This document shows, in pieces, positions 26,672-49,388 of a stretch of 64,000 nt of DNA. The position numbers were made by a program, and so were the translations under genes. Every line of letters begins with the position of its first letter. The stretch's first letter is position 1. The DNA is taken from assembly GCA_003649205.1 (NCBI GenBank), contig QMRC01000006.1, positions 13,190-77,189 on the forward strand, written 5' to 3'. The notes beneath the pieces are model-generated. The model worked only from the letters and a program-made list of their open reading frames with translations, was not told where the DNA came from and did not search any database. Source of the DNA: Thermoprotei archaeon (GTDB taxonomy: Archaea > Thermoproteota > Thermoprotei > Thermoproteales > B15-G16).

Positions 26672-26725
26672 GCACTCACAACATAGACCAAGCTACAATG
26701 TAAAAAATAAGTATTAACGCAATTG

Positions 26726-34235: not shown

Positions 34236-34245
34236 TTGAGTTCTC

Positions 34246-35409
34246 ATGGAAGAAATCACACCTGATAGCCCTATCTATCAGGTGAGAATAGGTCTCAATT
34301 CGATGGAGTTGCTGAAGCACTTTGAGAGTTGGTTAATTGCTCAGAACCTGTCCGTGGCTACGGTTAGGTCTCATGTTAGACAGGTTAGGTCTTTCCTCAC
34401 GTGGTTTGGTAGGTCTATCGAGGATTTGAGTAGTTTCGATATTGCGTGTTACCTAGCTGAGTGCCGTAAGCGTGGTCTATCTGAGGCTAGTGTGAATCGC
34501 TATGCTTCTGCTCTCAAGAAATTCCTGAGGTTCCTAGCTAGTTACTTCAGAGCTAGGAGAAGGGTTGAGTTAGCTAATTACTTTGAGCAGGTGTACCGTG
34601 AGGTCAAGGTACCTAAGTACGACCTAGTTGAGGTCAGCATTAAGCGACACATGGAGCCTGATACAGCGAGGAAAGTCATAGACTTAATTCATGACCCCTA
34701 CTGGAAGTGCTTTTTCGCTGTGCTGTATGAGACAGGTCTGAGGTTGAGGGAGCTTAGACAGGTCAAGGTAAGTGATGTTCACGAGAACAAGCACGGGTTC
34801 GAGATAGTTGTCAGAGATAGCAAGACACCTGAGGGAGTTAGGAAAGTGTACGTGGTTGAGTACTATCAGCTACTGAGGTACTACCTAGAGCATGTACGTC
34901 CGAGAGATAGCGAGTGGTTGTTCCCTGCTAGGAGAGACCCAAGGCAACCAATCTCCGAGAAAGCAATCTACAGCTTTCTAAACCGCTTCAGAAAGCGGAC
35001 AGGTATCGTGATTAGTCCACACCGCTTTAGACACGCTAGAGCTACTGAGCTTTACCGCAAGGGAGTATCTGAGCAGTCGTTAATGAGGTTGTTTGGTTGG
35101 AGGACAAGGACAATGATTGATGTCTACAGTAAGCTTTCACAGCGAGATGTGGAGTCTGAGCTACTGAGCAAGGTCTACGGGCTATCCCCTGTAGAGAGTG
35201 AGAGGTCTCAGACTCGTAAGTGCCCGAGGTGTGGTGCTGAGGTAATACCCACAGCTAGGTACTGTCCATACTGTGGTCTAGCCCTAGATATTGCGTCAGT
35301 ATTAGGCAAAGAGGAACAGGTACGGAAATACGCAGAGCTCATTGAAGCACTGCTGAGGTACCTAGAGGAACACCCAGAGTACCTGTCGAAACTATTCTCA
35401 AGGACTTAA
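34246..35409 (+). CDS. int: tyrosine recombinase/integrase with C-terminal zinc ribbon
   Basis: N-terminal SAM-like core-binding domain. Catalytic blocks are ETGLRLRELRQVKVSDV (Arg), HRFRHARATELY (H-x-x-R) and LFGWRTRTMIDVYS (Tyr). The C-terminal tail carries CPRCGAEV..YCPYCG. Confidence 0.9.
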   Translation: MEEITPDSPIYQVRIGLNSMELLKHFESWLIAQNLSVATVRSHVRQVRSFLTWFGRSIEDLSSFDIACYLAECRKRGLSEASVNRYASALKKFLRFLASYFRARRRVELANYFEQVYREVKVPKYDLVEVSIKRHMEPDTARKVIDLIHDPYWKCFFAVLYETGLRLRELRQVKVSDVHENKHGFEIVVRDSKTPEGVRKVYVVEYYQLLRYYLEHVRPRDSEWLFPARRDPRQPISEKAIYSFLNRFRKRTGIVISPHRFRHARATELYRKGVSEQSLMRLFGWRTRTMIDVYSKLSQRDVESELLSKVYGLSPVESERSQTRKCPRCGAEVIPTARYCPYCGLALDIASVLGKEEQVRKYAELIEALLRYLEEHPEYLSKLFSRT

Positions 35410-35562
35410 AAGCGGACATGAAACACAGGCAGAGAACACCAAGACCCGCCCTATAGTCCAGAGGAAATGTTGCCTGAATTCAACAATAGTCTAATATGCG
35501 TATACGTGTGAGTGAACAGCGAGCGAGGTAATACACCACTTGAGGATGAATAGGGGCTCCTC

Positions 35563-35631
35563 GGGGGATGATGAAGGGCTTAGCGGAGCGACCCCGCAAG
35601 GGGGTATGGCTGGACCAGGCTAGCTGACCCC
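35563..35631 (+). ncRNA. GC-rich structured RNA candidate with external C/D-box-like K-turn (element-borne)
   Basis: GGGG-AUGAUGA (C box 35568-35574) ... CUGA (35624-35627)-CCCC terminal stem, with an internal CCCC-GCAA-GGGG tetraloop hairpin (35592-35603). The internal D'/C' boxes are not recognisable. Confidence 0.35.
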
Positions 35632-35753
35632 TACCCCCTCGCCCCGTGATAATGGGTTATTATCACCAATATTTAAGTTTCTATGCAATTACAGTGAAAT
35701 TACCATGGTTACTTTCTCGTGAGGGGGTTTAAGAACCCTTGATACGTCTTTGC

Positions 35754-36101
35754 TTAGCCTTTCTTTCTGATTAGTCCTCCTATTGCTCCTCCTATCATTG
35801 ATAGGAATGCTGAGGCTAGCATCATGAATATTATTGCTAACCCTGCTAACCCACCTGCCCATGCTCCTAGGAATCCAGCTACTGAGAAGCCTAGTACTGT
35901 CAGCACTATTGCTGCTAGTATTCCTCCAATGATTCCACTGAGGAACCCTGCTGCTGCTCCTCTACCTGCTCCTCCTCCAGCTACTAGACCTGCTATGAAG
36001 CCTCCAAGTACTGGTGCGAAGATGTGTAGTATGGGTGAGAGTACGGCTGTAGCTAACATACCTGCAAAGACACCAGCTATGAAACTCAGTACACGACCCA
36101 T
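35754..36101 (-). CDS. Gly/Ala-rich small membrane protein
   Basis: 115 aa with 3-4 TM helices made of G/A/I/L repeats and a basic C-terminus. The opposite-strand ORF is a Pro/Ala shadow. Confidence 0.5.
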   Translation of the reverse strand: MGRVLSFIAGVFAGMLATAVLSPILHIFAPVLGGFIAGLVAGGGAGRGAAAGFLSGIIGGILAAIVLTVLGFSVAGFLGAWAGGLAGLAIIFMMLASAFLSMIGGAIGGLIRKKG

Positions 36102-36371
36102 GTAGGGAAAACCCCGAGGAAACCAGATACAGAGAGGACATAAAGCAGTTCAGAACATAGAGAGCAATGAACCTAGCAACCTCAGAGGACAGAAAACAAG
36201 AACGCTCCTCCGGTCGGTGATGAATACTTGTACTTTTCTCTCGGTGACTTTCCTCAAGGCACTAAATAAGAAATTGCTCTACTCTACAGTGGTATGGATT
36301 CTGAGGATTTTTGGATTGGTTTTCTCCTTGGTTACAGTACTGGTCTTATTCATGCGAAAAACTTAACAACT

Positions 36372-36755
36372 TCAGAACTTGTCTTCAGGCTCATTTCCTG
36401 TTCCTTCATGCTCAGTGAGTTGTTGGGTACTAGACTTAATGAGTTCTTCAGCTCTTTGGAGAAGTTCAGCGACTTCACGACCCTTCTCAGTGAGCTCAAT
36501 GTACCTAAGACCGTGCTTGGTATACGTCCTAACAAGACCGTACTGAAGACAGGTACTGAGGGCTCTGTAAGTACTGACAGGTGAGATACCGTATCTCTGA
36601 AGTTCTCTAATGTGCATAGCTCTACCTGTTTTGTGAAGAATTAGCAGCAATTTAATTCCCGGTCTACCTAAGTCATCAGCTAGAGCTGACATTTTCCTCT
36701 GTCGTTTTCTGGTGATAAACCTAATAACGATATCTTCGAGCATTCGTAACCTCAT
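36372..36755 (-). CDS. winged-helix transcriptional regulator
   Basis: LLLILHKTGRAMHIRELQRYGISPVSTYRALSTCLQYGLVRTY..YIELTEKGREV is a wHTH (ArsR/MarR-like) pattern. It is transcribed divergently from the RHH-led operon. Confidence 0.65.
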   Translation of the reverse strand: MRLRMLEDIVIRFITRKRQRKMSALADDLGRPGIKLLLILHKTGRAMHIRELQRYGISPVSTYRALSTCLQYGLVRTYTKHGLRYIELTEKGREVAELLQRAEELIKSSTQQLTEHEGTGNEPEDKF

Positions 36756-36786
36756 TCTCAGTCTATACCCGATTTAGAGGTATCAC

Positions 36787-36850
36787 GTAATAATATTACA
36801 ACGCTATATCTCGAAACTGATAAATTGTTATAACGTTACAGAGTTGTAAC
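36787..36850. promoter_or_regulatory. divergent promoter/operator region with inverted repeats
   Basis: GTAATAATATTAC (36787-36799), palindrome GTTATAAC (36827-36834) and GTTACA-gagt-TGTAAC (36835-36850). All lie between the wHTH gene and the RHH gene. Confidence 0.4.
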
Positions 36851-36853
36851 AGG

Positions 36854-37051
36854 GTGAGAGAGGTGCCTAAGAGTAAGGTGCCTATGGTCTTGGTTACCTT
36901 CCATATCCCGATACCACTCCTTAGAGAACTTGACAGGTTGGTGGAGGAGGGTAAGTTCCCGAGCAGGAGCGAGGCGATAAGGCACGCAATAATCCAACTC
37001 CTAGCTCGTGAGCGTCAAAGAACACAAATACACGAGGTGTTGGTAGCGTGA
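36854..37051 (+). CDS. ribbon-helix-helix (CopG/Arc-type) DNA-binding protein
   Basis: MVLVTFHIPIPLLRELDRLVEEGKFPSRSEAIRHAI is a textbook RHH pattern. The true start may be the ATG at 36884. Confidence 0.7.
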   Translation: MREVPKSKVPMVLVTFHIPIPLLRELDRLVEEGKFPSRSEAIRHAIIQLLARERQRTQIHEVLVA

Positions 37052-37296
37052 CCATTGTCAACTATGTCGAGGTAATTAGGAACATCATACTCAATGCTTT
37101 GAAGGAGCATGGCTACATTAGTGACCTAGAGCTTGTTAGGGCTGTCAAAGAGGCTACGGGACTCAGCTACGTAGACTTTGCTCCCATTCTTGAGCAGGTA
37201 CTGAGTGAGCTAATGAGGTCTGGCGCAATTAGACGTGTAATGTCAGCAAGCAACCCGAGAAAGGTCGAGCATGGGTGGGAGCTGTGTACACAATAA
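37048..37296 (+). CDS. hypothetical protein (element)
   Basis: 82-aa ORF coupled to the upstream RHH gene by a GTGA overlap. Confidence 0.5.
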   Translation: MTIVNYVEVIRNIILNALKEHGYISDLELVRAVKEATGLSYVDFAPILEQVLSELMRSGAIRRVMSASNPRKVEHGWELCTQ

Positions 37297-37640
37297 AGCC
37301 GAATGGATTCTACCTCAGGTTGGTTTTGGATGCACTGAAGTACTGTGCTAGGACTGAAAGAGGCTCTATTGTGTCTATTTACCCAAAGAAAGTCGCTAAG
37401 TTAAATGGGTACAGTGTTCGTGCATGTGGGAGGTATAGAGATGACAGTGAGGTAGAGAGGTCGCTATCCCCTGCCGAGCTATCTATCATTAGGTACTGGC
37501 TGGATTACCTCTGGGTCAATGGGCTGTGTAGCCGTGAGAAGACTAGTCGTGACAGGTGGAACTACGTATTCCCGAGGGAGAACTTGCCTAAGGCTATCAA
37601 GCTACTTGAGGAGGTGCTCAATGGTGAAGTACAAGATTGA
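37275..37640 (+). CDS. hypothetical protein (element)
   Basis: 121-aa ORF in the co-directional early-gene string. Confidence 0.5.
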   Translation: MGAVYTIKPNGFYLRLVLDALKYCARTERGSIVSIYPKKVAKLNGYSVRACGRYRDDSEVERSLSPAELSIIRYWLDYLWVNGLCSREKTSRDRWNYVFPRENLPKAIKLLEEVLNGEVQD

Positions 37641-37761
37641 GGAGATAGTCAAGGAGTTGAAGGTTGCTCTCAGGGATAGAGAACTCAGAGAAGCATTGCT
37701 GAAGCACTTCTCCAACAACCCAAAGGCTCAAGCAATCATACTACTCCTGTCAGGTGAGTGA
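37621..37761 (+). CDS. small hypothetical protein (element)
   Basis: The ATG at 37621 (MVKYKIEEIVKELKVALRD..) overlaps the previous stop. The longer track ORF from 37519 overlaps the preceding gene extensively. Confidence 0.35.
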   Translation: MVKYKIEEIVKELKVALRDRELREALLKHFSNNPKAQAIILLLSGE

Positions 37762-38000
37762 GCATGATTGAGCTGAGTTTCAAGACGAAGCGGGACTTCG
37801 ATAACTGGGTTAAGGCGCTGTATGACTTCGGTTCGAATCACTGTGTTGAGCCTGTCGTCATCAAGCTAGATGGTAATGACCTCTACGACAGGTACATGGT
37901 CTGCATTGTGTACCATGCTTGGACTGAGGAAGGTGCTTACGCAGTGACCTGTCTAGCCCGCATAGTAGCGATAGTGTACAGGGAAGGTGAGCAGAAGTGA
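37758..38000 (+). CDS. hypothetical protein (element)
   Basis: 80-aa ORF with a 4-bp overlap with each neighbour. Confidence 0.5.
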   Translation: MSMIELSFKTKRDFDNWVKALYDFGSNHCVEPVVIKLDGNDLYDRYMVCIVYHAWTEEGAYAVTCLARIVAIVYREGEQK

Positions 38001-38179
38001 GTCGCTACCACGGGCACAAGGTAACTATCACGATTATTGCGACAACAGGTTCTGGACTACCGACAGGTGAGCGAAAGAGCGATTTCATTAGATTCATGGT
38101 CGAGCAGGTACTGGAACGTGAGCTTTCTAAGAGGCTCCGTGATTTCCGTGTCCTCAAAGTCATGGTGAAGGTGATGTAG
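37997..38179 (+). CDS. hypothetical protein (element)
   Basis: 60-aa ORF with a GTG start overlapping the previous stop. Confidence 0.4.
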   Translation: MSRYHGHKVTITIIATTGSGLPTGERKSDFIRFMVEQVLERELSKRLRDFRVLKVMVKVM

Positions 38180-38258
38180 ATGGTTCCTGCTACTACTACC
38201 TATTCTATTTCTAGTAATTCGTTTAGACAAAATACGCGGGACATTAAACGCGGTTCAG

Positions 38259-38383
38259 ATTGGAACCAATGTTCCCTCTCAGAGGAATCATTGAAACCAA
38301 TCATTGGAATCAATGTCAGTGGTATGATTGGAACCAATGATTGGAACCAATCATTCCACTCGCTTAGTCTCATTGGTTCCAAA
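38259..38383. repeat. iteron-like array of ATTGGAACCAAT half-palindromic 12-mers
   Basis: Copies lie at 38259-38270, 38290-38301 (ATTGAAACCAAT), 38303-38314 (ATTGGAATCAAT), 38327-38338, 38340-38351 and, inverted, 38372-38383 (ATTGGTTCCAAa). The region has no convincing ORF. Confidence 0.7.
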
Positions 38384-38394
38384 AACGGAGAGAG

Positions 38395-38718
38395 GTGTTG
38401 AGTATCCCCCGAATAACTATCTACATCCATGAGAGCGATTGGGAAAAGCTGACGAAAATAGCTGAGCAGAGAGGACAATCAATGTACAGCATAGTGAAGC
38501 AAGTAGTACTTGAGTTCCTGAAGCTAAGTAACCCAATTGTTGCTCATGGTAAGCTTTCTAGGGATTTAGCTACCTGTCGGAGCATTATCAAGCGATTTGG
38601 TTGGTGTGCTCTCTGCATACATGCTGAGGTTGTTGGTGATAGGTTAGTCTGCAGAAAGACAGGCAAAGTCATAGAAAAACCCATATGGCAATGCCCACAC
38701 CCCATACCCAAGGTGTAA
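38395..38718 (+). CDS. RHH-like N-terminal domain protein with Cys-rich C-terminal region
   Basis: ITIYIHESDWEKLTKIAEQRGQSMYSIVKQVVLEFL has a beta-strand/helix/helix pattern. The C-terminal region is CALCIHAE..CRKTG..CPH. It lies directly downstream of the iteron array. Confidence 0.5.
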   Translation: MLSIPRITIYIHESDWEKLTKIAEQRGQSMYSIVKQVVLEFLKLSNPIVAHGKLSRDLATCRSIIKRFGWCALCIHAEVVGDRLVCRKTGKVIEKPIWQCPHPIPKV

Positions 38719-38727
38719 ATCATGCTT

Positions 38728-38751
38728 TTTACACAGCTGCAGCTGTGTAAA
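38728..38751. promoter_or_regulatory. perfect 24-bp palindrome TTTACACAGCTGCAGCTGTGTAAA
   Basis: Read directly from the sequence. It is flanked by an AAATCAT / ATGATTT inverted pair and GTAAAT repeats, in the 76-bp gap upstream of ORF 38795. Confidence 0.5.
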
Positions 38752-38794
38752 TGATTTTTACTCACTGACAGGTGCGTAAATTTGGTGAGAATTC

Positions 38795-39163
38795 ATGTCC
38801 GAGATGGAGAAGTTAATTAGGAACCTGAACATACTGCGAAACTACTTCAGCAAGGTACCACCTGAAGTCATTGAGGCTCTCATGTACTTTGAGGATAGGT
38901 TCTTCACTGAGAAATACCATGTTGTTCGCTCTAAGACAGGTAGGGAGTATCGCTACAGGTACCTCTACATCAGGTTGAATGACTACAGGACACTAGGTTA
39001 CTTCAGGATAAATGATAGCAATGATGAATTGCTGCTACACGAAATTAGGCAGGTCAAGGCATTTTCACAAGCACTACTACAGTACATAGCAATGCTCAGA
39101 CACAGCAAACTAGCAAACCTCACCAAAATTTACTCAAGGACCTTGAGTAAAAACAACCAATAA
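38795..39163 (+). CDS. hypothetical protein (element)
   Basis: 122-aa ORF with no recognisable motif. Confidence 0.5.
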   Translation: MSEMEKLIRNLNILRNYFSKVPPEVIEALMYFEDRFFTEKYHVVRSKTGREYRYRYLYIRLNDYRTLGYFRINDSNDELLLHEIRQVKAFSQALLQYIAMLRHSKLANLTKIYSRTLSKNNQ

Positions 39164-39224
39164 CACATCAGCAATTGGGGAAATTGAATTGGGGTGATGC
39201 CCCCTGAACCTCAAGGTCTATTTC

Positions 39225-40211
39225 GTGAAGAAAACTAGGCAATACGAGGTCTATGAGGGCTCTAGGAGAATCCTCAGGACTAAGGTACATGCAAAAGCTC
39301 ACGAGTACCTATCGAAACAAATCAATTCAAGTTTTGAGTTCTACTTTGTTTGTTGCAATAGGGAGCACCTGTTAGCATGTTCACGTTTCTTTGAACTCAC
39401 AGGTCGCAGGCTCAATGTGTTGATTAGTTACAACTTCATACGTGACAGGTACCTCACACAGGTGCTTCAGCAAGTTAGACCACACCTAAGCAAAGTCATG
39501 ATTGATTCAGGTGCTTTCCATGTACTTATCCGCAAGGTACCCCTGGAAAAGTTCCAGAGCTACATAGGTGAGTACGTGAATTGGCTCAACAACCACACAG
39601 AGCTTTACGACTACTGTGTCGCACCTGACGTACCCTGTGATGAACGACCCGCAGAAAAAATCCAGAAACTACCAAACAGGTACAAGATAGAGCTAACCAT
39701 AGCTAACACAGTTCACTGGATAGATAGGTTGACAGACCCTCGCAAGGCTGTGGCTGTAGTTCAGGGTTATTTCGTGAATGAGTACCTGCTCTGTGCTGAG
39801 AAGCTGAAAGAACTCGGGCTCACAACAGCAAAGACAGGTGTCGGCTCTTTATGTGTCAGGAAATACAGTAGACAACAAGCACGTGAAGTACCACAGATAC
39901 TAGCTAGCATAAGACAGGTCTTACCGTCATGGGTGAAACTTCACGCATTCGGTCTTCAGCTAGATTTCTTACCGACCTGTCTCAAGTACCTACACAGCTC
40001 AGACAGTGCCTCATGGCAATTAAGTTACTCAAAGTTCAATAGGATACGAATAGCGAACCTGTCGACAGGTCAAACAGTTGAGCTTGATTTAGTTAGTCAT
40101 GGCGGAGCGAGGAAAAAGAACCTAGACCAAGTCACGATATACACATACAACCTCTTAGCCTACTGGAATAGAGTTCAGCAACTAACGAGACAGGCAGCAC
40201 AGACAAAATAA
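39225..40211 (+). CDS. TGT-fold transglycosylase, DpdA-like (candidate DNA or tRNA 7-deazaguanine transglycosylase)
   Basis: The order of blocks matches tRNA-guanine transglycosylases. These are MIDSGAFHV (Asp94, cf. DSGGFQ), AVVQGY (cf. VQGG), GVGSLC, KLHAFGL (cf. xLxGxG) and HSSDSASW (Asp260, cf. FDS/FDC). There is no PUA domain and no Cys-Cys-Cys-His zinc site, as in the short phage/island DpdA proteins. Confidence 0.6.
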   Translation: MKKTRQYEVYEGSRRILRTKVHAKAHEYLSKQINSSFEFYFVCCNREHLLACSRFFELTGRRLNVLISYNFIRDRYLTQVLQQVRPHLSKVMIDSGAFHVLIRKVPLEKFQSYIGEYVNWLNNHTELYDYCVAPDVPCDERPAEKIQKLPNRYKIELTIANTVHWIDRLTDPRKAVAVVQGYFVNEYLLCAEKLKELGLTTAKTGVGSLCVRKYSRQQAREVPQILASIRQVLPSWVKLHAFGLQLDFLPTCLKYLHSSDSASWQLSYSKFNRIRIANLSTGQTVELDLVSHGGARKKNLDQVTIYTYNLLAYWNRVQQLTRQAAQTK

Positions 40212-40230
40212 AGTAAGTGTTGAAAACTGC

Positions 40231-40995
40231 TCAAGTCCCCATGTTCTCTATCTCATGTCCTGTAGGGTATAGGTTCAGTTTCTTTATGTACTTGTACACT
40301 GTTTGACGTGAAACACCGAGTGCTCTAGCTATATCACTTATACTGTAACCTTTCTTCAACATATCCTCAATAGTCTTCTCCCTATTAGCAGTCTGGATAG
40401 CTACCTGTAAGTCCATGAACACCTTCTCAACAAAGAGCCTCCTCATTTCCTGATACTTCACATAGATGTCGTGGTCTAGCTTAGGCACGAAGGTATCTAC
40501 ACCAATTTCCTTCACCACGAACTTACCCGTAGGAGTCCACGTAAACCTGTAGATGTGTGCCTCTCTCTCACCTTGCTTACTCTTCCTAATGTGTACATGT
40601 ATCCAACACATCTCACGTAGTGCTCTTAAGAGCAGGCGATAGGTAGGTACCGTGAATATGACAGCACCTGTCACAGTCCTAGCAACCTCAAGGAACTTTA
40701 CAAATAGCTGACGGTCTTCTTTAAGAAAGTCATATTTGCTTATCCACACACCAGCATCATCATAGCACAGACACTTAACACGCTTACGATACCTAAGACA
40801 CTCCCTAATAATTGGGAAAGACTGCTTAACATCGAAGAATACGTAGTTGAGAGCAGTCTCCCTACAATACAGCTCACTCAAGACCTTGATAGCGTAGGTA
40901 GTCTTACCAACCCCTTGCTGACCCTGAATAACAATAACCTCAAATCCATTGTTCCTGAAAGCACGCTCAATTATCTTAGTTAGGACAAACGGCAT
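40231..40995 (-). CDS. P-loop NTPase with C-terminal helix-turn-helix
   Basis: Walker A QGQQGVGKTTYA, Walker B-like CLCYDDAG, and a C-terminal GYSISDIARALGVSRQTVYKYIKKL (resolvase/HTH_7-like). Confidence 0.7.
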   Translation of the reverse strand: MPFVLTKIIERAFRNNGFEVIVIQGQQGVGKTTYAIKVLSELYCRETALNYVFFDVKQSFPIIRECLRYRKRVKCLCYDDAGVWISKYDFLKEDRQLFVKFLEVARTVTGAVIFTVPTYRLLLRALREMCWIHVHIRKSKQGEREAHIYRFTWTPTGKFVVKEIGVDTFVPKLDHDIYVKYQEMRRLFVEKVFMDLQVAIQTANREKTIEDMLKKGYSISDIARALGVSRQTVYKYIKKLNLYPTGHEIENMGT

Positions 40996-40998
40996 ACC

Positions 40999-41301
40999 TC
41001 ACTCCTCCTCAATCTCCTCCTCACGACCAACAGGTATGAACCTCTTACGACCCATTACATGCGTTATAGTCCTGAAGAACTTAGCAAACGATAGCAGAGC
41101 TGAGTAACCACGACCGCCCTCAGCTAACCTCAACTCAAGGTAAGGTATGATGAATGAGTCTCTCAAGTCCTGAAGGTTGTACCTGTCGCATATGAAGAGC
41201 AACGTAGCTATCTTACGAGCCTCACCATACTGCAACCTAGTTAAGCGAAGTATGTTCCCCGAGGTAAGAGCCTCAATTAGTTCCTCTGACATGAGCCTCA
41301 C
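40999..41301 (-). CDS. hypothetical protein (element)
   Basis: 100-aa ORF with an acidic tail, coupled to the neighbouring genes. Confidence 0.5.
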   Translation of the reverse strand: MRLMSEELIEALTSGNILRLTRLQYGEARKIATLLFICDRYNLQDLRDSFIIPYLELRLAEGGRGYSALLSFAKFFRTITHVMGRKRFIPVGREEEIEEE

Positions 41302-41302
41302 C

Positions 41303-41758
41303 TCACAGGTGAATGATACCGAACTTCACGAGCATGAACATGATGTACGCACCTATGATTAACCCACAAATCAGAGCAATGATGACAGGAGTAGCCCTAA
41401 CAGGTACCTTCTCCGTTAGCAGAGCCCTCAGTACCTGTCCCTTGATAATCTGCGATATAGTGTCACTATCAATGTAGGGGTCTTGATATTGACCACAGAA
41501 GTACACTATCTTTCTGACAGGTGCCCACACCTTCACGTCTCTAAACACCCTAACCCTACCCCCAGCAAGCACCAGCTTCCTCTCCGGATTGAGCAATTTA
41601 GCAGGCGTAATCTCGACATGCTTATCGTTCACGATAATAGCTATGTGCTTTGACCTGAAGATACGTCCTTCAGGTCTCGCTAGGAACATCATGATGAATG
41701 TGACAGGTATAGCTACGCAGTATATTGCGACTAGGATAGGGCTCAACATAGGGCTCAC
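41303..41758 (-). CDS. membrane protein (element)
   Basis: 151 aa with N- and C-terminal TM helices. Confidence 0.5.
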   Translation of the reverse strand: MSPMLSPILVAIYCVAIPVTFIMMFLARPEGRIFRSKHIAIIVNDKHVEITPAKLLNPERKLVLAGGRVRVFRDVKVWAPVRKIVYFCGQYQDPYIDSDTISQIIKGQVLRALLTEKVPVRATPVIIALICGLIIGAYIMFMLVKFGIIHL

Positions 41759-42280
41759 CTACAGAGTCTTCTCAGCTTCAGCAATGAGCTTGTTCAGGAC
41801 CTGCTCAACCCTCTCAATTCGCTTAGCTAACTCACTGAGCCTATCCTCACTATGATTTGAGCCTAGCTTACTCACGTCGATAGCGTCTAGGAATATCGAG
41901 AGCGGAACAGCAATAGCGTACTCAAACCTCTCAACCTTACCACTCTGCTCGACAGGTATCGTAACTTGCTGAGCCTCCCTCTCCCTCACCAAAATCAGAA
42001 CACGGTCAGGATTCCTAACCGCAGAGACAGGTAGCTTAGACAGGTACGGTCTCCTACCTGTCTCACTTTCGGACGTGTACGGTCTACCTCTCTGAAAGTG
42101 AAGTACTAAGCACAGAGCACCGAGACTAGCTAGAGCAATGAAACCAACCCACTTCAGCGTAAAGACCGCTCCAGAGGATATCTTAGCAGTCAGTGGTGAC
42201 AGGTATGGGTCATACCAAATCAAGTACATGACTGCACCTGTGAGCAGTGCTGTGCTCAGGTAAAGGAAACGAGTACTCAC
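41759..42280 (-). CDS. membrane protein (element)
   Basis: 173 aa with three N-terminal TM helices and a C-terminal coiled segment. Confidence 0.5.
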   Translation of the reverse strand: MSTRFLYLSTALLTGAVMYLIWYDPYLSPLTAKISSGAVFTLKWVGFIALASLGALCLVLHFQRGRPYTSESETGRRPYLSKLPVSAVRNPDRVLILVREREAQQVTIPVEQSGKVERFEYAIAVPLSIFLDAIDVSKLGSNHSEDRLSELAKRIERVEQVLNKLIAEAEKTL

Positions 42281-42405
42281 TTACAACCCACCTCACTTAT
42301 GTAAACTTTTTCACAAAAACCATAAGGTCAACTTGCGAGATATCCTGAATAATCACTGAACACGGAGCAAACCTGAGACAGGTCGAAAAGTAGGAGGTGA
42401 AGTAG

Positions 42406-42765
42406 GTGGACATAGACCTAGGGAACATCCTGAGAGCTGTCCTGTTTGTAGCCCTAATACCCACGCTATTCGGAGCTATAGCTGGATTCGTTGACCCTTC
42501 ACTACAACCAATGATACAGCCCCTACTCAGCCTAGTACCAATGCTCATAATCCTCAACCTAATCAAAGACCTGTTCTCAGAAGCTGGAGCAAAGGGATTC
42601 GTCAAGATATTCGATATCCTACTGCTCGTAATGATGTTACCTGTCCTAATCAACATGTTCGGAGCAGCCACAGGACAAAACGAAGCACTAGCACAAGTCT
42701 CAGGACTCCTACAGCAACTCCTACCAATCCTACTATTCATCAAGCTCATCGAAGAGATGGTTTAG
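42406..42765 (+). CDS. small membrane protein (element)
   Basis: 119 aa with 3-4 TM helices. It is immediately upstream of the large glycoprotein gene. I prefer it to the antisense track ORF 42297..42749. Confidence 0.5.
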   Translation: MDIDLGNILRAVLFVALIPTLFGAIAGFVDPSLQPMIQPLLSLVPMLIILNLIKDLFSEAGAKGFVKIFDILLLVMMLPVLINMFGAATGQNEALAQVSGLLQQLLPILLFIKLIEEMV

Positions 42766-42786
42766 TTCCTTCGAGGTGATTAAGCT

Positions 42787-44541
42787 ATGAAACCCAAGCC
42801 CCTTTTTGCAATCTTAACAGTACTCACTCTAGTGCTCATAGTGGCGGTTGTTAATGCTGGTGAGTACACGCTATACGATGTACTTCAGTACGCTCATGAG
42901 GTACATGTCTTCGGAAAGACATACAACACAGCAAGTTATGGCACCACAACTTACTCTGGGACATGGAATCTAACTGATGTTGTGTCGGGGAGGAAAGTTA
43001 CATTTGGCTACAGGCAATACCTACAAGACCCAGATAGCTCCGACACAATCGTTATTGTGTTTCAGAAGAATACAGCTATCGAGGTCGGTACTGGTAGCGG
43101 GAAGTGTGTCTACGGTAAACCTGTCGTAATTACGTATGATACTGAAACAGGAAGGAGGACTATGTACTACATTGATGGCGGTGAACTGAAGAAAGTAGGT
43201 GAATTCACTGGTGGTACCTACGTCTACTGGAACGGTACAAAGTTATGTCAAGCACTACGTTTCAAGGACTGGTTAGATTTCCACAAGTTCTTTAACAACA
43301 CATGCATGTTAATACTCCCAGACATCACGACATACGACTACAGGATAATTGATGGGTCTTCCGAGCTATTAAAGGATAAGTGTGGTGGAAATGGTTTCCA
43401 CACCCTCATTATCTTCGGTGGTGAGTACCTAAACAAATCGATAATTGTTGAAGTTGCTGGAGCCTACGGAATCAAGAACATAACGCTCACTACAGAACTC
43501 AACACAGTCTACACGATTGACCCAAAGCACTTGAAGTTAGCTGTGTTCACAGGTAACCTAACGGAGACGCTATCGAGGGCGAGCCAGAGCACAGAGGAAA
43601 GTACACAGGAAAGTACAACTAACACGACAAACGAGACCTCAACACCAACCACAGCACCAGAGACGAAGGTGTACAAGGTCACGATACATGTCTACGATGT
43701 GGATACCAATGAGGAAATCACATCAGCAATGGTTAAGGCGGGTTGGTTCACGAAGACAGGTTCACCTGTTACCTTTGAGTTCAAGTGGAAGGAACCACAG
43801 TGGTTACCTATCTCAGCTAGTGCTACAGGTTACAAGTCCTTCAGCACAACTATCTGGGTCGATACCAACATGACGCTGTGGGTAGGGCTAGTCAAGGAAA
43901 CCTCGAACAGCACCGAGCAATACAGTAAATTACTGAGGCTCGGTGTCTCAATTGCGGGTGTTGGTTCAACTCCATATTGGGCTCAGGAAAACAAGACATT
44001 CACAGAGTGGGCTAATGAGGTTGAGCAGTTACTATCCTCATCACAGGCTCCTGAGGTTAAGTATGAGACTACGTGGTATGGTTTGAAGATAGTCGCTGTG
44101 AAGGTACCTTCAGGTAGACCAGCATACGGAGTAGCGACTATTGTCGCTGTTAAGAAAGGATTTCTCGGTACCCTAACATGGGAAGAAGAACTCGGTACTG
44201 TGCAAATAGTGAATGGTACGGGTTATTTCCATGTTGACTACGAGACAATCAAGAACAAGCTACAACTCAAAGAGTGGGGAGGGGAGTACTTCTACGGTTT
44301 CAAGATTGTATGGAAGGTCGGTGACCTAGACCCAGAGGTCGAGGTTGTACCTGTCAAGAATACATGGACGCCTGTCTACATTCAGGTGAATGAGCAGACA
44401 GGAACCTACTCAGCAACAACACTACCACAGACAGCATTAACGAATGTCGGAACATCACTAACACAGATGCTCATAACCCTACTACCACTGTTCATCATAT
44501 TCGCACTCATTGGAGCTATTACAGGTCGTAGAAGGCGATAG
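42787..44541 (+). CDS. large secreted, C-terminally anchored glycoprotein-like protein (candidate virion/envelope or surface protein)
   Basis: Signal peptide MKPKPLFAILTVLTLVLIVAVVNA. Many N-x-S/T sequons. Thr/Ser-rich linker ESTQESTTNTTNETSTPTTAPETK. C-terminal TM helix plus RRRR stop-transfer. Confidence 0.6.
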   Translation: MKPKPLFAILTVLTLVLIVAVVNAGEYTLYDVLQYAHEVHVFGKTYNTASYGTTTYSGTWNLTDVVSGRKVTFGYRQYLQDPDSSDTIVIVFQKNTAIEVGTGSGKCVYGKPVVITYDTETGRRTMYYIDGGELKKVGEFTGGTYVYWNGTKLCQALRFKDWLDFHKFFNNTCMLILPDITTYDYRIIDGSSELLKDKCGGNGFHTLIIFGGEYLNKSIIVEVAGAYGIKNITLTTELNTVYTIDPKHLKLAVFTGNLTETLSRASQSTEESTQESTTNTTNETSTPTTAPETKVYKVTIHVYDVDTNEEITSAMVKAGWFTKTGSPVTFEFKWKEPQWLPISASATGYKSFSTTIWVDTNMTLWVGLVKETSNSTEQYSKLLRLGVSIAGVGSTPYWAQENKTFTEWANEVEQLLSSSQAPEVKYETTWYGLKIVAVKVPSGRPAYGVATIVAVKKGFLGTLTWEEELGTVQIVNGTGYFHVDYETIKNKLQLKEWGGEYFYGFKIVWKVGDLDPEVEVVPVKNTWTPVYIQVNEQTGTYSATTLPQTALTNVGTSLTQMLITLLPLFIIFALIGAITGRRRR

Positions 44542-44544
44542 AGC

Positions 44545-44847
44545 ATGACTAACCGCTACGTCTACCTTGGAAAGAAAGTGAAGGACATAGGCAAGAAAGG
44601 ACTAGACCGACCAAGCGAGTACCTAGCAATAGCGAGAGCTATAGCACAAGACTACAAGGCTGGTAGGATAAGTAAAAAGACTGCTCACGGACGCTTTTTA
44701 CTACTTTACAGGCTCGTGGATAAGAATAGCAAGCTGAAGGTACCTAAGTCAGTTAAGGAACGTCTCAAACGCAAGATTAAGGAAATCTGGATGAAGACCA
44801 TTGGAGGTGGGAAGGTGGCTCGAAAGAGGAAAAGAAAGAAAAGGTAG
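44545..44847 (+). CDS. small basic protein (possible nucleic-acid-binding)
   Basis: 100 aa, Lys/Arg-rich, with the C-terminal tail ARKRKRKKR. Confidence 0.5.
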   Translation: MTNRYVYLGKKVKDIGKKGLDRPSEYLAIARAIAQDYKAGRISKKTAHGRFLLLYRLVDKNSKLKVPKSVKERLKRKIKEIWMKTIGGGKVARKRKRKKR

Positions 44848-45003
44848 GCTCAAGTCACATCACCTGTATGTCGCTCTAACTACCTAATTTCTTGAGCTTG
44901 CTCTAGTCCTCAAGAATTCTTTACACATGTCTCATGTCCTGCGACCTGTCACCTAGACCTGAACTAGCTCAAGACAGAAGGTGGGTGACTTCTCTCAACT
45001 TAT

Positions 45004-45060
45004 TTAGGTCAGACAAGGCTGAATTCTTCACGGATCTGCCTCGCCTGGGCTCATCATAAA
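45004..45060 (-). ncRNA. C/D box sRNA (dual guide) whose 3' end is the att core
   Basis: The minus strand reads AUGAUGA(C, 45051-45057)-GCCCAGGCGAGG(12)-CAGA(D', 45035-45038)-UCC-GUGAAGA(C', 45025-45031)-AUUCAGCCUUGU(12)-CUGA(D, 45009-45012)-CCU. Confidence 0.75.
45006..45022. repeat. attR: 17-bp direct repeat AGGTCAGACAAGGCTGA
   Basis: Exact copy of 34219-34235. It lies inside the 3' part of the minus-strand C/D box sRNA. Confidence 0.75.
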
Positions 45061-45101
45061 GCAGCCAATTACCTACTCTCGAGACCCTCTAATAAAGATC
45101 A

Positions 45102-45860
45102 CTAATCAGCAATCACATACCTAACCTCACCAGTGAAGCACCACTCACTCTCATCACTACGTTTGAGATCCACATCTACACACTTCTGCTGAAGATACAG
45201 TATTAGTTCTCGACTCGGGATTGCCTCACTAGGTAGTGAATCAAGAACACGTCTATACTGTACAGCTATGATTCCATCGAAGTACTTACTTAGCTCCTCA
45301 ACTGACTCAACAACCTTACTCTCTGGAATTAACTCAATACCGAAGAGGATGTAAGCAATGAAGCTAACCTCATCACCATAAACTTCACGACATTTCTCCC
45401 TAAGAGCATTCAACCTCACAATCTCACTCTGAGGAATACCCTTACACAACACAGCATTTCTCAGGTACTCATCCCAAACCTCAATACCAACCCTAATAAC
45501 GAGCCTACTAGGTTTAAGCAGCTCAAGCACCTGTCTCACAGAGTCAAAACTTAGGTACTCAGGTCTAGACTCAATATCCACAATTCTACCACAGGTAAAT
45601 CTAGAGAGCTTGAGCACGGTATCCAGAGGTAGCTCAAAGAATGAACCACCATTAAATACAGTAATTCTCTCAATACTAAACCTCAGGGTAGCATCTTCCA
45701 GAAGCGACAATATCTTGTCATTTGTCTGAATTACATCGGATAGTGAGTTACCTGCCTCAAGGAAGAAGGGACAGAAGACACATCTACCCCAACGACATCT
45801 AAATCCCTTGAGTATCACGATAGCTCTCTTCCTAGATCTCTCAATCACAACACCTAGCAC
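45102..45860 (-). CDS. RaSEA-like radical SAM protein (archaeosine formation partner of ArcS)
   Basis: Cys triad CRWGRCVFC (C-x4-C-x2-C, Elp3-like spacing) near the N-terminus, about 250 aa. It overlaps and is co-directional with the ArcS-like gene, the arrangement known for ArcS/RaSEA. Confidence 0.55.
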   Translation of the reverse strand: MLGVVIERSRKRAIVILKGFRCRWGRCVFCPFFLEAGNSLSDVIQTNDKILSLLEDATLRFSIERITVFNGGSFFELPLDTVLKLSRFTCGRIVDIESRPEYLSFDSVRQVLELLKPSRLVIRVGIEVWDEYLRNAVLCKGIPQSEIVRLNALREKCREVYGDEVSFIAYILFGIELIPESKVVESVEELSKYFDGIIAVQYRRVLDSLPSEAIPSRELILYLQQKCVDVDLKRSDESEWCFTGEVRYVIAD

Positions 45861-46557
45861 TGAGAATCTCCCTCAAACCACTAATTAACTTACTCAAACT
45901 AGTTGGAGTTATGAGTATGAGATCTGGATCATCGTAGTAACCACCTAGAGATACCTCATCAAGCTCATGAGGAGGTACCTCATTAACTCTCGCAGCTAAG
46001 TTCTTAACCTCAATACCTAGCATGGAACAAGCACGCTCTAGAGCAGCATAGCTATCTGAATCCCACCTTAGATACGACACAAAGCACTCATAATAACTCC
46101 TAAATCTACTCAGGAACAATCTCAATCTCTCACAGGTAACCTCCCTATAGAGTACCTTCACTTCACTAGTTTCATACTTAGGATTCCAGTCATACGCACA
46201 ATAGGGGTAGTACTCTTCAAGCTCTCTCGGTACGATACCGGCATTCGTTATAATGACTTGATGAATATCCTCGTAGTACCTACCTAACGACTTCAAAGCC
46301 CTAATTATGAAGTAGTGTATGTAGGATTGAGAGTACGGCTTACCGTAAGCACATGGTAGGAAGAGACAGACTCTATACCTCTTCCTTGGCTTCCACTCAG
46401 TTAGTAATCTCTTAAAACCCTCTTCAAAGAATGGGTGCTTAAGGTACCTAAGACCTACACCTCTGAGGAATTCCCTACCATCACCAGACCAGATAAGTTC
46501 GTGACCATCCCAAATAACGTACAAGCTAGATCCCTCAAGAAGTTCTCCACAAACCAA
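45841..46557 (-). CDS. ArcS-like protein (stand-alone DUF5591/ArcS catalytic-type domain)
   Basis: LPCAYGKPYSQSYIHY is an exact match to the ArcS signature PC-x3-KPY-x2-S-x2-H. At 238 aa it has no PUA domain. Confidence 0.75.
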   Translation of the reverse strand: MVCGELLEGSSLYVIWDGHELIWSGDGREFLRGVGLRYLKHPFFEEGFKRLLTEWKPRKRYRVCLFLPCAYGKPYSQSYIHYFIIRALKSLGRYYEDIHQVIITNAGIVPRELEEYYPYCAYDWNPKYETSEVKVLYREVTCERLRLFLSRFRSYYECFVSYLRWDSDSYAALERACSMLGIEVKNLAARVNEVPPHELDEVSLGGYYDDPDLILITPTSLSKLISGLREILSARCCD

Positions 46558-46610: not shown

Positions 46611-46808
46611 GTGATGTATTTGTCAACTAAGAAACGTGAAGAGAGATGGGGTACGTGCCCGAAGTGTGGTGGAGGATTGAGAAGGAGAAATCACCCAGAG
46701 ATATTCCAGTGTAGGAAGTGTGGTACGTACTTCTGTGGTAGGTGTTGGAAGGCAGAATTCATGTCCTATGCAGAAGCTTTAGAGCACTTAAAGGACTGTA
46801 CTGGTTAA
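46611..46808 (+). CDS. small zinc-ribbon protein
   Basis: CPKCGG..x13..CRKCGTYFCGRC, 65 aa. Confidence 0.5.
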   Translation: MMYLSTKKREERWGTCPKCGGGLRRRNHPEIFQCRKCGTYFCGRCWKAEFMSYAEALEHLKDCTG

Positions 46809-46837: not shown

Positions 46838-48589
46838 GTGCTTGGCAGTGTATTTAGGGATTCTGGTGTCCAAGTACTTGCTGTTGAGGGTAGAGCACTA
46901 CAGAGTAAGATCGTTAGTGCAATTATCCAAAGTTGTAGGGAGATGAACATCAATGTCATTGTGCTACCTAGTGGTAGAGACGTGGTCCTATCATCAGTCG
47001 CTACTTCAAGTACTTTCCTGCGTACTCTAGCAGTGATATCTCATGAAGGTTTTGCAGAGTCTCTCGATGTACTTGAGAAAGTGAGTAGAGTAGGTTGCAG
47101 AGGTGCTTTAGTGATAACAGTTGTCGATGAATTTAGACAAGATATCCGTGTACTGGCTTCAGCCCTAAAGCTTCCAGTACTAGAGCTATCAACAGCTAGC
47201 TACATCCCGTTGATCTACAGTAATTGCTTTGAGTGGAGTGAAGCAGCAGAGCTACCATACGTAGTTAGGTTGTTATGTCCCTTAGTGTGGTCTAAGGTTG
47301 AGTACCGTGGTGAAGGTATTGAGAGGTTACCTAGAACACCTGTCTTCAACAAGCACTGGCACAGAGTGTATAGGTGGGTACCTGAGCTACATGATAGGTA
47401 CTCTGTGAATCTGCAGGAGGTTGATAGGTGTCGCGATGTTGCTAGAGCTTTTGCAGAGTTGGGTACTCTATGTAGGGAGTGGGGTAGTGGTGATACCTGT
47501 GTTATTAGTAGTGGCTTTGCTAGGTTCTGTATTGAGTTAGGTGGTGTCTGTTTCCTAGATGTACCTTACGTGTATCCTTTTCCTCGGGAACTTCTTAGGA
47601 AGCAACTTCATGAGTATCGTAGAGCTATTGTTGTTGAGATTGGTGTTGCTTCCTACCTCAGTGATTTGGTTAAGTCTATTTTACCGAGTGGAGTTGATGT
47701 AGTGACTATTATTGGCAATGATATTGTTGATGCTGTGAATAAGTTGTCAGCTGTACTTAGGTGTACCGTGAAGGGTGTTGAGTTGATTAATGGTCTCGAG
47801 AGGTATAGTGAGGCAAGGAGTACAGTTAGTGAGGAGTGTTGTGGTTGCGGTTTAGTTGCTCTTGCTTATGCTCTGTACCGAGTACTTAGGGATAGGGGTG
47901 ATGTACCTGTTATCGTATTTGATAGGGGGTGCCTCGGTAGGCTGTTAATGAGATTTAGAGGGGATTTGAAGCCAAATTACTCAATACTTTCAACATCGTA
48001 CTCGATTGATGATGTAGGGGATATAGGGGATATTTCTCTAGCACCTAGGTCAGCAATTACGACATCTATTGGGTATGCAGTAGCTAGGTATCGTGATGGT
48101 CCTATCCTCTGTGTATCTGATGGTCTTAACTTCCTCACTCAAATCCATAGTATTAAGGTGTTGAGGAGGGTTGGTGATGTTAAGTTACTTATTGTGGTCA
48201 CTAGAGGGTACAGTGGATCTGAGCTGTTTGAGGATCTTGACGCTGTGAAGTTGCTTGAGGTCCTTGGGTATTCTCGTGAGGAGGTTCTGGTTACTGATTC
48301 AGGTAGTGTTAATGAGCTAGTTGAGTTCTTGAGTAAGTTACTTAGTAGGCCTGAGGTTAGAGCTATGGTGTATCTAGTCAATTGTCGTAAGGGTAGAGAA
48401 GTTGTTTGTAGAGGAGTTGTCGAGTTTATTGCTGAGAACTGTGATGCTTGTGGTGAGTGCCTTAAGGTCCCTTGTCCTGCTATCGAAATTTCTGAAACAG
48501 GGACACCAGTAATTAAGCGTGAGCTCTGTATTGGTTGTGGTATATGTTGTGAGGTCTGTACTAGAGGTGCTTTGAAACTTGCGCAGTAG
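46838..48589 (+). CDS. indolepyruvate:ferredoxin oxidoreductase alpha-like protein (degenerate TPP region) with 2x[4Fe-4S] C-terminus
   Basis: The C-terminal CDACGECLKVPCPAI...CIGCGICCEVC is as in IorA, and overall size fits. The usual GDS TPP-binding motif is not evident (CVSDGLNF). Confidence 0.4.
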   Translation: MLGSVFRDSGVQVLAVEGRALQSKIVSAIIQSCREMNINVIVLPSGRDVVLSSVATSSTFLRTLAVISHEGFAESLDVLEKVSRVGCRGALVITVVDEFRQDIRVLASALKLPVLELSTASYIPLIYSNCFEWSEAAELPYVVRLLCPLVWSKVEYRGEGIERLPRTPVFNKHWHRVYRWVPELHDRYSVNLQEVDRCRDVARAFAELGTLCREWGSGDTCVISSGFARFCIELGGVCFLDVPYVYPFPRELLRKQLHEYRRAIVVEIGVASYLSDLVKSILPSGVDVVTIIGNDIVDAVNKLSAVLRCTVKGVELINGLERYSEARSTVSEECCGCGLVALAYALYRVLRDRGDVPVIVFDRGCLGRLLMRFRGDLKPNYSILSTSYSIDDVGDIGDISLAPRSAITTSIGYAVARYRDGPILCVSDGLNFLTQIHSIKVLRRVGDVKLLIVVTRGYSGSELFEDLDAVKLLEVLGYSREEVLVTDSGSVNELVEFLSKLLSRPEVRAMVYLVNCRKGREVVCRGVVEFIAENCDACGECLKVPCPAIEISETGTPVIKRELCIGCGICCEVCTRGALKLAQ

Positions 48590-49388
48590 GTACCTGTATG
48601 GCTATCCTGTGATTGCTGTTCTTGGCTACAAGAATTCCGGTAAGACAACCCTGATATCTCTACTAGTTAATTCACTACAGAGACGTGGGGTTAAGGTTGG
48701 TGTCATAAAGCACATTGCTGATAAGTACTTCACTATTGATACACCCGGTACTGATACATGGAAGTTTAGGGGATGCGGTAGCAGTGTTGTTGGGTATGTT
48801 GCAGATAGTGGTGAGGCTGGTCTCTATGGTGATCTTGGTGATCTAGGTATGTTACTTAGGTTCTTCCTTGAGCTAGGTTGTGAGGTTGTTTTTCTTGAGG
48901 GGTTCAGTAGGTGGGTTAGGGATAGGGGTGATGTTGCTAAGATAGTGTGTGTAAGAGGTTATTCTGAGGTTTCAGAGCTTACTGAAGGTGTTGTGAATGT
49001 AATTGCGGTGTGTAGTCCATACGTTTCTGGTGATGGTATTGTTAAGCTACCTGAACAATTTAATGAGGTTTTAACGAGAGTTCTAAAGTACGTAGAGCTT
49101 CAACGTAAGGTACGTGAGGTACTAACTCAGCTACCAGGTCTGGACTGTGGGAAATGCGGTTTACGATGTTGCGGTGAGTTTGCTCTTGCTGTGGTTAGGG
49201 GTTTAAGGAAGTTAGAGGAGTGTAGAGCTAGAGGCGGAAGTTTATCTAGGGTCACTGTTAGGGGTCGTGAAGTTGCTCTTAATAGGTTTGTATCTAAGCT
49301 ACTTCACGATATTGTGCTTGCTATCTTGAAGAATTTGAAAGGTGTTGAGGTAACAGGTGCTGAACACATTGAGGTGATTGTAGAGTGA
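48579..49388 (+). CDS. mobB: MobB (molybdopterin-guanine dinucleotide biosynthesis adaptor) with C-terminal putative Fe-S domain
   Basis: VIAVLGYKNSGKTTLISLLVNSLQRRGVKVGVIKH is the MobB P-loop block. The C-terminal LPGLDCGKCGLRCCGEFALAV resembles the RnfB-type Fe-S domain. Confidence 0.75.
   Translation: MRSRYLYGYPVIAVLGYKNSGKTTLISLLVNSLQRRGVKVGVIKHIADKYFTIDTPGTDTWKFRGCGSSVVGYVADSGEAGLYGDLGDLGMLLRFFLELGCEVVFLEGFSRWVRDRGDVAKIVCVRGYSEVSELTEGVVNVIAVCSPYVSGDGIVKLPEQFNEVLTRVLKYVELQRKVREVLTQLPGLDCGKCGLRCCGEFALAVVRGLRKLEECRARGGSLSRVTVRGREVALNRFVSKLLHDIVLAILKNLKGVEVTGAEHIEVIVE

Follow-up and report, generated by a model that had tools for sequence, protein, structure and literature searches.

The stretch of DNA analyzed here (the window) comprises 64,000 nucleotides (nt) of contig QMRC01000006.1 from a Thermoprotei archaeon (assembly GCA_003649205.1), and between positions 45102 and 46557 it carries two overlapping genes on the minus strand. 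One encodes a small protein with the C1 (DUF5591) domain of ArcS, and the other a short radical S-adenosylmethionine (SAM) protein of the superfamily that contains RaSEA and queuine lyase. Both open reading frames (ORFs) lie where the original prediction, made from the letters of this DNA, had placed them. In the databases the products are labeled ‘DUF5591 domain-containing protein’ and ‘hypothetical protein’, respectively. The features of the pair can be listed as follows.

45841..46557 (-): ArcS-like ORF, a stand-alone ArcS C1/DUF5591 protein and proposed alpha subunit (PF17884, motif, conservation)
46315..46356 (-): ArcS signature P68-C-AYG-KPY-SQ-S-YI-H81, visible in the translated sequence
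45102..45860 (-): short radical SAM protein of the RaSEA/queuine-lyase superfamily and proposed beta subunit (profiles, fold, motif)
45771..45797 (-): predicted [4Fe-4S] cluster motif C22-RWGR-C27-VF-C30 (C-x4-C-x2-C), read from the sequence and invariant in the family

The ArcS-like ORF, called in the ORF list of the window at 238 amino acids (aa) from a TTG start, contains LPCAYGKPYSQSYIHY, and this is, as predicted, an exact match to the PC-x3-KPY-x2-S-x2-H motif defined in PMC10516641, which cites Phillips 2010. The profile searches that had been proposed were run, and the Pfam family DUF5591 (PF17884) matches the ORF at 54.2 bits, over its cutoff of 26 (E 1.9e-14). No second Pfam domain is found, nor any TGT, TGT_C2 or PUA match among the Pfam and NCBIfam profiles, and the ArcS models match at residues 49-123 only. 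The protein therefore has the C1 domain and the motif but not the full ArcS architecture of a TGT-like N-terminal domain, C2 and PUA. It has 159 homologs at E <= 1e-3, and the 120 of these that were listed are 199-255 aa long, have DUF5591 as the sole domain and belong to Thermoprotei (Pyrolobus fumarii, Pyrodictium, Desulfurococcales), Bathyarchaeia and Nitrososphaerales. An alignment of 36 family members has 44 invariant columns. These members share invariant signature residues (C69, Y71, G72, K73, P74, Y75, S78 and H81) and a second invariant block, N-A-G-x-x-P-R-E-L-x-E...P...Y-D-W-N-P. AF0587 (PDB 2q07), a C1-PUA split ArcS of Archaeoglobus fulgidus, has both the signature and this second motif (VPRE...YP...YDWNP) in common with the family.

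The AlphaFold2 model of the ArcS-like protein is confident and compact (pLDDT 90.1), and 2q07 is its sole significant match both by sequence profile (hidden Markov model (HMM) E 3.5e-8, query residues 48-195) and by fold (Foldseek E 4.8e-5). AF0587 differs in keeping a PUA RNA-binding module and in its length of 306 aa, and the identity between the two is ~19-30%. The window protein is thus a whole C1 domain with two family-specific extensions, one at the N terminus (~45 residues) and one, made of helices, at the C terminus (~40 residues); the N-terminal extension has invariant residues of its own (W16, G18, W23, R32, G33 and G35). An ortholog in the closest relative (locus L006, 91% nt identity in this gene) can be used to define where the protein begins. 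Its codon 4 is TGA and its next start is the TTG equivalent to window position 46524, at about which the family members begin. Because of this TGA, the TTG at 46524, and not 46557, is probably the conserved start; the protein would then have 227 aa, and the called start, which is the same at NCBI, is probably 11 codons too long. The truncated, DUF5591-only architecture of the original prediction thus holds, and the length that went with it probably does not.

The downstream ORF (252 aa, GTG start) shares 20 nt with the ArcS-like ORF and carries the predicted radical SAM triad at C22, C27 and C30. It has no Pfam match. Its sole NCBIfam match is TIGR01210, the RaSEA family, at 43.2 bits against a cutoff of 212 (model 13-191 of 313). 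Since bacterial QueL-like proteins have comparable sub-threshold matches of 34-53 bits, this match cannot discriminate RaSEA from QueL-like proteins. The 43 homologs of the family are 228-268 aa long and have in common C22, C27, C30, an FNGGSFFE block, E97/R99/E101, R134 and K140 as invariant features. The AlphaFold2 model has a pLDDT of 95.6 and its best Foldseek match is the queuine lyase 6p78 of Clostridium spiroforme (E 1.3e-12, TM 0.64/0.69), with lipoyl synthase as runner-up (2e-7); by family profile, 6p78 is again the best solved relative (E 2e-22). Compared with the L006 orthologs, the ratio of nonsynonymous to synonymous substitution rates (dN/dS) is 0.12 for the ArcS-like gene and 0.20 for the radical SAM gene, and it is 0.06-0.18 for six genes neighboring the pair. 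Both genes evolve under purifying selection, like the genes around them.

A search of 1.84 billion representatives with the short-family radical SAM profile shows that the family is compact: its full-length members fall into four clusters at 50% identity (262-347 bits), below which the scores fall steeply to <= 96 bits. TIGR01210 is the closest curated family of the window protein and of all its next relatives tested (10/10), and the short-family profile gives 80 bits for a true RaSEA (P0182), which has 337 bits to TIGR01210. The relatives were divided into a bacterial QueL-like set and a RaSEA-like set. With hhalign, the short family aligns to the QueL-like set at E 1.5e-34 over 200 columns and to RaSEA at E 1e-23 over 179 columns, and the two sets align to each other at E 1.9e-19. 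In a neighbor-joining tree without support values, the short family is its own clade beside the QueL-like proteins, and its mean distances to QueL-like proteins (0.841) and to RaSEA (0.843) are about equal. The C-x4-C-x2-C spacing occurs in 35/35 short-family and 16/19 QueL-like proteins, and C-x7-11-C-x2-C in 14/14 high-scoring RaSEA relatives.

By profile comparison, fold, length and cysteine spacing, the window protein is at least as close to queuine lyase 6p78 as to RaSEA. Likeness to queuine lyase extends over sequence, fold, size (~235-250 aa), the C-x4-C-x2-C spacing, and the GSFFELP and G-x-E...RN..LNKG motifs, and queuine lyase cleaves a side-chain C-N bond of a 7-deazaguanine, as would be expected of the window protein. 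Queuine lyase differs in that it is bacterial, converts the free queuine base to preQ1 in queuosine salvage and has no DUF5591 partner, whereas all members of the short family are archaeal and form a separate clade; identity in the structural alignment is 22%. A fair description of the radical SAM protein is that of a third clade of the RaSEA/queuine-lyase superfamily with a short QueL-type architecture. The earlier name ‘RaSEA-like’ holds for the superfamily but is too specific, given the score, the missing C-terminal third, the other cysteine spacing and the closer likeness to queuine lyase. Clustering with a different family had been named as evidence that would count against the prediction, and the result is intermediate: the clade is separate but the superfamily is the same.

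Conservation of the pair was followed in species-representative genomes, where 63 short-family loci and 17 canonical ArcS loci were found and searched for both genes with HMMs of the two families. A radical SAM gene lies <= 1.2 kb from the DUF5591 gene in 60/69 loci, on the same strand in 59 of them and usually overlapping it. Both gene orders are seen (radical SAM first in 36 loci, DUF5591 first in 24), and the pairing spans Desulfurococcales, Acidilobaceae, Pyrodictiaceae, Nitrososphaeria and Bathyarchaeia. Because the pairing survives inversion of the gene order, it is strong evidence of joint function. Nine of the 69 loci are unpaired, four of these at contig ends. The pair is a conserved host operon and not a truncated pseudogene. 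In addition, a protein of 497 aa (P0281) consists of DUF5591, TGT_C2 and PUA followed by a radical SAM domain in one polypeptide, a natural ArcS-RaSEA fusion that is a Rosetta-stone link for canonical ArcS and RaSEA.

When ORFs within 6-10 kb of the pair were clustered, the only other recurrent neighbor was a membrane protein present in 26/67 loci. It belongs to Pfam Vut_1 and passes the TIGR00697 ‘queuosine precursor transporter’ model at 177-178 bits against a cutoff of 51. Transporters of this family carry preQ0 and preQ1 (PMC11130926), and the adjacent transporter is an independent 7-deazaguanine link for the pair. It is absent from this position in the window lineage, and besides it no recurrent 7-deazaguanine gene was found around the 67 related loci. 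Two candidate neighbors were rejected: a radical SAM gene (211 aa) close to the pair in locus L004, considered as QueE, is PA0069/Rv2578c-like, and a PP-loop neighbor in Nitrososphaerales, considered as QueC, is a GMP synthase.

In our view these results are best explained, with a probability of roughly 60%, by the two genes encoding a minimal two-subunit archaeosine synthase of the host that acts on preQ0 in tRNA. In such a pathway, arcTGT would first insert preQ0 at tRNA position 15. The invariant Cys69 of the alpha subunit, within the PC-x3-KPY-x2-S-x2-H site, would then activate the preQ0 nitrile, maybe as a nucleophile, and an amine donor would be added to it, which, if the analogy to Thermococcus ArcS holds, could be the epsilon-amino group of lysine. 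The beta subunit would use SAM and a [4Fe-4S] cluster on C22/C27/C30 to cleave the C-N bond to the carbon skeleton of the donor, and the formamidine group of archaeosine would remain. Alpha and beta, translated from overlapping genes, would act as a complex. In this scheme, tRNA-preQ0 as the substrate, the identity of the amine donor and of the product, the physical association of the subunits and the part played by Cys69 are all inferred. Both characterized relatives of the beta subunit, RaSEA and queuine lyase, break a C-N bond by which an alkyl substituent is held to the exocyclic nitrogen of a 7-deazaguanine side chain, and queuine lyase reportedly acts on an analogous side-chain bond.

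Among the closest known systems is the euryarchaeal ArcS-RaSEA (Thermococcus kodakarensis; NF040592 and TIGR01210), with which the window pair shares a C1/DUF5591 domain with the PC-x3-KPY-x2-S-x2-H motif and a radical SAM partner of the same superfamily. The euryarchaeal genes are likewise adjacent, and in some organisms fused, and the expected chemistry, in which an amine is added onto the preQ0 nitrile before a radical C-N cleavage, may be the same by analogy. Like RaSEA, the radical SAM protein is encoded with an ArcS-type protein, through overlap in the window and adjacency in both orders elsewhere. The resemblance to an ArcS/RaSEA-type pair that was originally proposed is borne out to this extent: an ArcS-C1 protein and a RaSEA-superfamily radical SAM protein form a conserved operon. 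Differences include the alpha subunit, which has no TGT-like N-terminal domain, C2 or PUA and has the family-specific extensions at both ends, and the beta subunit, which stops short of RaSEA by approximately 110 C-terminal residues and has C-x4-C-x2-C instead of C-x7-11-C-x2-C. The window pair also belongs to Thermoproteota, and both proteins lie far under the equivalog cutoffs. Thermococcus ArcS is active solely in complex with RaSEA, and tRNA architecture is dispensable for canonical ArcS, which modifies the preQ0 nucleoside 5'-phosphate (PMC11298593); the loss of the PUA, C2 and N-terminal domains is therefore compatible with activity. A viral C1-only ArcS2 yields dG+ in E. coli (PMC10516641).

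Several observations weigh against a two-subunit archaeosine synthase. The ArcS-like ORF does not reach the ArcS equivalog cutoffs (54 vs 440 bits for NF040592 and 51.6 vs 600 for NF053620), and the radical SAM ORF misses that of RaSEA widely. The latter protein also lacks the C-terminal region of RaSEA, has a different spacing in the cluster loop, and is nearer queuine lyase than RaSEA in profile-profile score and fold. No RNA-binding domain is recognizable in either protein by profile searches, and the isoelectric points of the two (6.0 and 5.3) are near-neutral or acidic. In five loci with ample flanks, the DUF5591 gene stands without a partner nearby. Finally, no arcTGT was found among the 57 larger ORFs scanned in the 64-kb window. 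The same scan found no QueC, QueD, QueE or FolE-type gene, and the suggestion that this locus might hold every 7-deazaguanine function is therefore not supported.

Part of this evidence would suit a reading in which the same chemistry acts on salvaged free preQ0 (base, nucleoside or nucleotide, imported by QPTR/YhhQ) to give a G+ base or nucleotide, which a relaxed crenarchaeal arcTGT would then insert. The missing RNA-binding domains, the non-basic character of both proteins and the transporter adjacent in 26/67 loci all fit such a route, as does the radical SAM subunit, whose nearest relative, queuine lyase, acts on a free base, is about as long and likewise has C-x4-C-x2-C. Models of arcTGT from Crenarchaeota without ArcS have also been proposed to fit the G+ base (PMC5485725). 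However, the preQ0 base is not used by Thermococcus ArcS (PMC11298593) and the G+ base is not used by canonical arcTGT (PMC5485725). For QueF-L the same idea was raised, but this enzyme proved to act on tRNA-preQ0 (PMC5485725), and adjacency of a transporter is equally expected for a salvage-fed pathway at the tRNA level. On balance, we consider a free-preQ0 route unlikely, but it is the strongest of the alternatives. QueF-like and GAT-QueC proteins share with the window pair the presumed end product, G+ in tRNA, and occur in Crenarchaeota without full-length ArcS. They differ in their unrelated folds (T-fold; GATase-QueC), in being single proteins, and in using ammonia or glutamine with no radical chemistry.

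It is also doubtful that the pair is a distinct enzyme system altogether, in which the radical SAM protein would be a third branch linking queuine lyase and RaSEA, and the substrates, for want of any RNA-binding module, would lie outside tRNA (free preQ0 base or nucleotide brought in by the adjacent QPTR transporter or, opportunistically, dPreQ0 in DNA). If true, this would mean a free-base route to archaeosine, or the use of dPreQ0 laid down by DpdA-only mobile elements like the one that neighbors the pair and is described below.

A division of labor between the two proteins can also be imagined, in which the C1 protein alone would be an amidinotransferase using NH4+ or glutamine, and the radical SAM protein would have another task, for example a queuine-lyase-like salvage cleavage of imported N-substituted 7-deazaguanine. 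As summarized in PMC11298593, the ArcS of M. jannaschii uses NH4+, Asn or Gln to form G+ directly; the ArcS2 of Vibrio phage nt-1 gives some dG+ without a radical SAM partner (PMC10516641), and the affinity of the radical SAM subunit to queuine lyase would agree with a separate role in salvage. We nevertheless find this quite improbable. The near-obligate pairing, with overlapping frames and through gene-order inversion, argues for one joint function, an ArcS-RaSEA fusion exists, and the ArcS enzymes of Thermococcus, Thermoplasma and Methanosarcina need RaSEA (PMC11298593).

A further alternative concerns the surroundings of the pair, which lies beside a virus-like integrated element. The features of this element and of its target are given below.

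34236..45005 (plus one core copy): integrated virus-like element of ~10.8 kb, absent from L006
34219..34235: attL core, an exact direct repeat and second copy of AGGTCAGACAAGGCTGA
45006..45022: attR core of 17 bp, AGGTCAGACAAGGCTGA, an exact direct repeat
34246..35409: tyrosine integrase with a C-terminal zinc ribbon (Phage_integrase, 86 bits)
39225..40211: DpdA/TGT-like protein (DpdA PF23859 at 27.0 bits, equal to the cutoff, and phrog matches)
40231..40995 (-): DnaA-like ATPase with a helix-turn-helix domain
42787..44541: serine/threonine-rich protein of 584 aa with an N-terminal signal-like segment and no family match
~45007..45061 (-): C/D-box sRNA, identified by sub-threshold full-length Rfam-type matches, downstream of the pair on the same strand and not part of the enzyme pair

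L006 is colinear with the window from 56553 to 45006 and then, skipping the element, from 34235 to 31655, with a single core copy. Because 45006 thus joins 34235 directly, L006 is the empty site, and it fixes the ends of the element exactly. The sRNA has a C box (AUGAUGA), a 12-nt guide, CAGA, UCC, GUGAAGA, a second 12-nt guide and a D box (CUGA), the guides being GCCCAGGCGAGG and AUUCAGCCUUGU; its boxes and guides are kept in L006. Many archaeal C/D sRNA models match it over the full length but under threshold (for example sR5 at 20.7 bits, E 0.0077), and the window contains no Rfam family at the gathering threshold and no tRNA gene. The 17-bp core spans the D guide and the D box, and the 3' end of the sRNA, rather than a tRNA gene, is the integration target. 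The same 17 bp include the stop codon of a convergent membrane-protein gene (33564..34235). Integration restores an intact sRNA at attR.

Much of what had been said of this neighborhood is confirmed. The attR copy, placed at about 80 bp from the pair, ends 79 nt from the radical SAM stop codon, the repeat and the empty site bear out the att assignment, the sRNA lies directly downstream on the same strand, and the element does encode a TGT/DpdA-like protein, which also matches phrog_1279 ‘queuine tRNA-ribosyltransferase’ (4e-11) and phrog_5484 (5e-41). One could therefore propose that the pair serves DNA modification, converting dPreQ0 placed by a DpdA, such as that of the neighboring element, to dG+, and that the proximity is functional. 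The element encodes no preQ0-synthesis or preQ0-finishing enzyme, viral C1-only ArcS2 proteins work with DpdA on DNA (PMC10516641), and DUF5591 homologs are present in archaeal viruses (PhiF1 at 41% identity, and STSV1/2/4). Against this, the pair and the sRNA are at the same place in the element-free relative, a synteny comparison that had been called for, and in none of 67 other loci is a DpdA-like gene found within 10 kb of the pair. A search of 50,697 phage records found nothing homologous to the radical SAM protein, and both genes of the pair are missing from a viral contig that carries a DpdA-like gene at 42% identity. The adjacency itself is explained by the integrase, since the pair stands 79 nt beyond attR because the sRNA that the integrase targets lies there. 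The proximity, which had been allowed to be a coincidence, is incidental; a functional tie of the pair to the element was rejected on these grounds, and a role in DNA modification is very unlikely. The tempting link between the pair and the neighboring DpdA-encoding element is thereby removed.

The ArcS2 proteins themselves (Vibrio phage nt-1, Sulfolobus virus STSV2; Hutinet et al. 2023) resemble the window protein in having a stand-alone DUF5591 with the same motif (26-41% identity by tblastn). They are virus-encoded, act with DpdA on DNA, and have no radical SAM partner in any phage record, whereas the window protein is chromosomal, is present without the element and belongs to a family almost always paired with a radical SAM gene. 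The best viral match of the ArcS-like protein is in Methanobacterium virus PhiF1 (L086, MK994522.1, 72368..72880; 41% identity over 86% of the query), a virus of Methanothermobacter, which is closer to it than STSV1/2/4 or the nt-1 ArcS2.

The idea that the ArcS-like ORF is a pseudogene fragment of a full-length ArcS, for which its 227-238 aa against the ~500-580 aa of canonical ArcS might speak, can be dismissed with near certainty, being contradicted by the 199-255 aa of all 120 listed homologs, the 44 invariant columns, a dN/dS of 0.12, the confident and compact model and the conserved partner gene.

A few further observations were made along the way. Among the genes in the scanned part of the window are those for Hyp proteins, the aspartate pathway, Opp and the molybdenum cofactor. 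Molybdenum-cofactor genes abound around the pair (24396..31413 and 46838..49388) and include a MoaB/MoaE fusion, a MoaA-like radical SAM protein, two MoeA (one fused to a PBP-like domain) and a MobB-Fe-S fusion. A 583-aa protein in this region is weakly like the alpha subunit of indolepyruvate:ferredoxin oxidoreductase and has a C-terminal 2x[4Fe-4S] ferredoxin domain. No functional link of the molybdenum-cofactor region to the pair is apparent. Divergent from the pair and 53 nt away, a gene at 46611..46808 (+) encodes a 65-aa zinc-ribbon protein with four cysteines, which is 97% identical in aa sequence to its L006 counterpart (dN/dS 0.06). Among the relatives of the radical SAM protein, P0213, P0218 and P0219 (698-748 aa) and P0234 (616 aa) have a RaSEA-superfamily radical SAM domain fused to an N-terminal TIR (TIR_2) or SIR2 domain, and this arrangement looks like the effector-sensor fusions of anti-phage defense.

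The stand-alone C1 architecture is not new, since it is noted in Hutinet et al. (PMC10516641). In the literature within our reach, which did not extend to subscription papers, no description was found of a short QueL-like radical SAM protein as the near-obligate companion of the C1 protein, of the intermediate position of this partner or of the association with a transporter. The PDB searches gave no structure of RaSEA or of a full ArcS, and two proteins of ~230 and ~250 aa would make this the smallest system of the ArcS/RaSEA type; for both reasons the pair is attractive for structural work. Nearly all Archaea have archaeosine at position 15 of their tRNAs, where it is important for stability at high temperature. 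The pair is a concrete candidate for the enzyme that finishes archaeosine in Desulfurococcales, thermophilic Nitrososphaeria and Bathyarchaeia. As the radical SAM partner is intermediate between RaSEA and queuine lyase, it further suggests that the radical C-N lyases of 7-deazaguanine side chains form one family, which reaches from bacterial salvage to archaeal biosynthesis.

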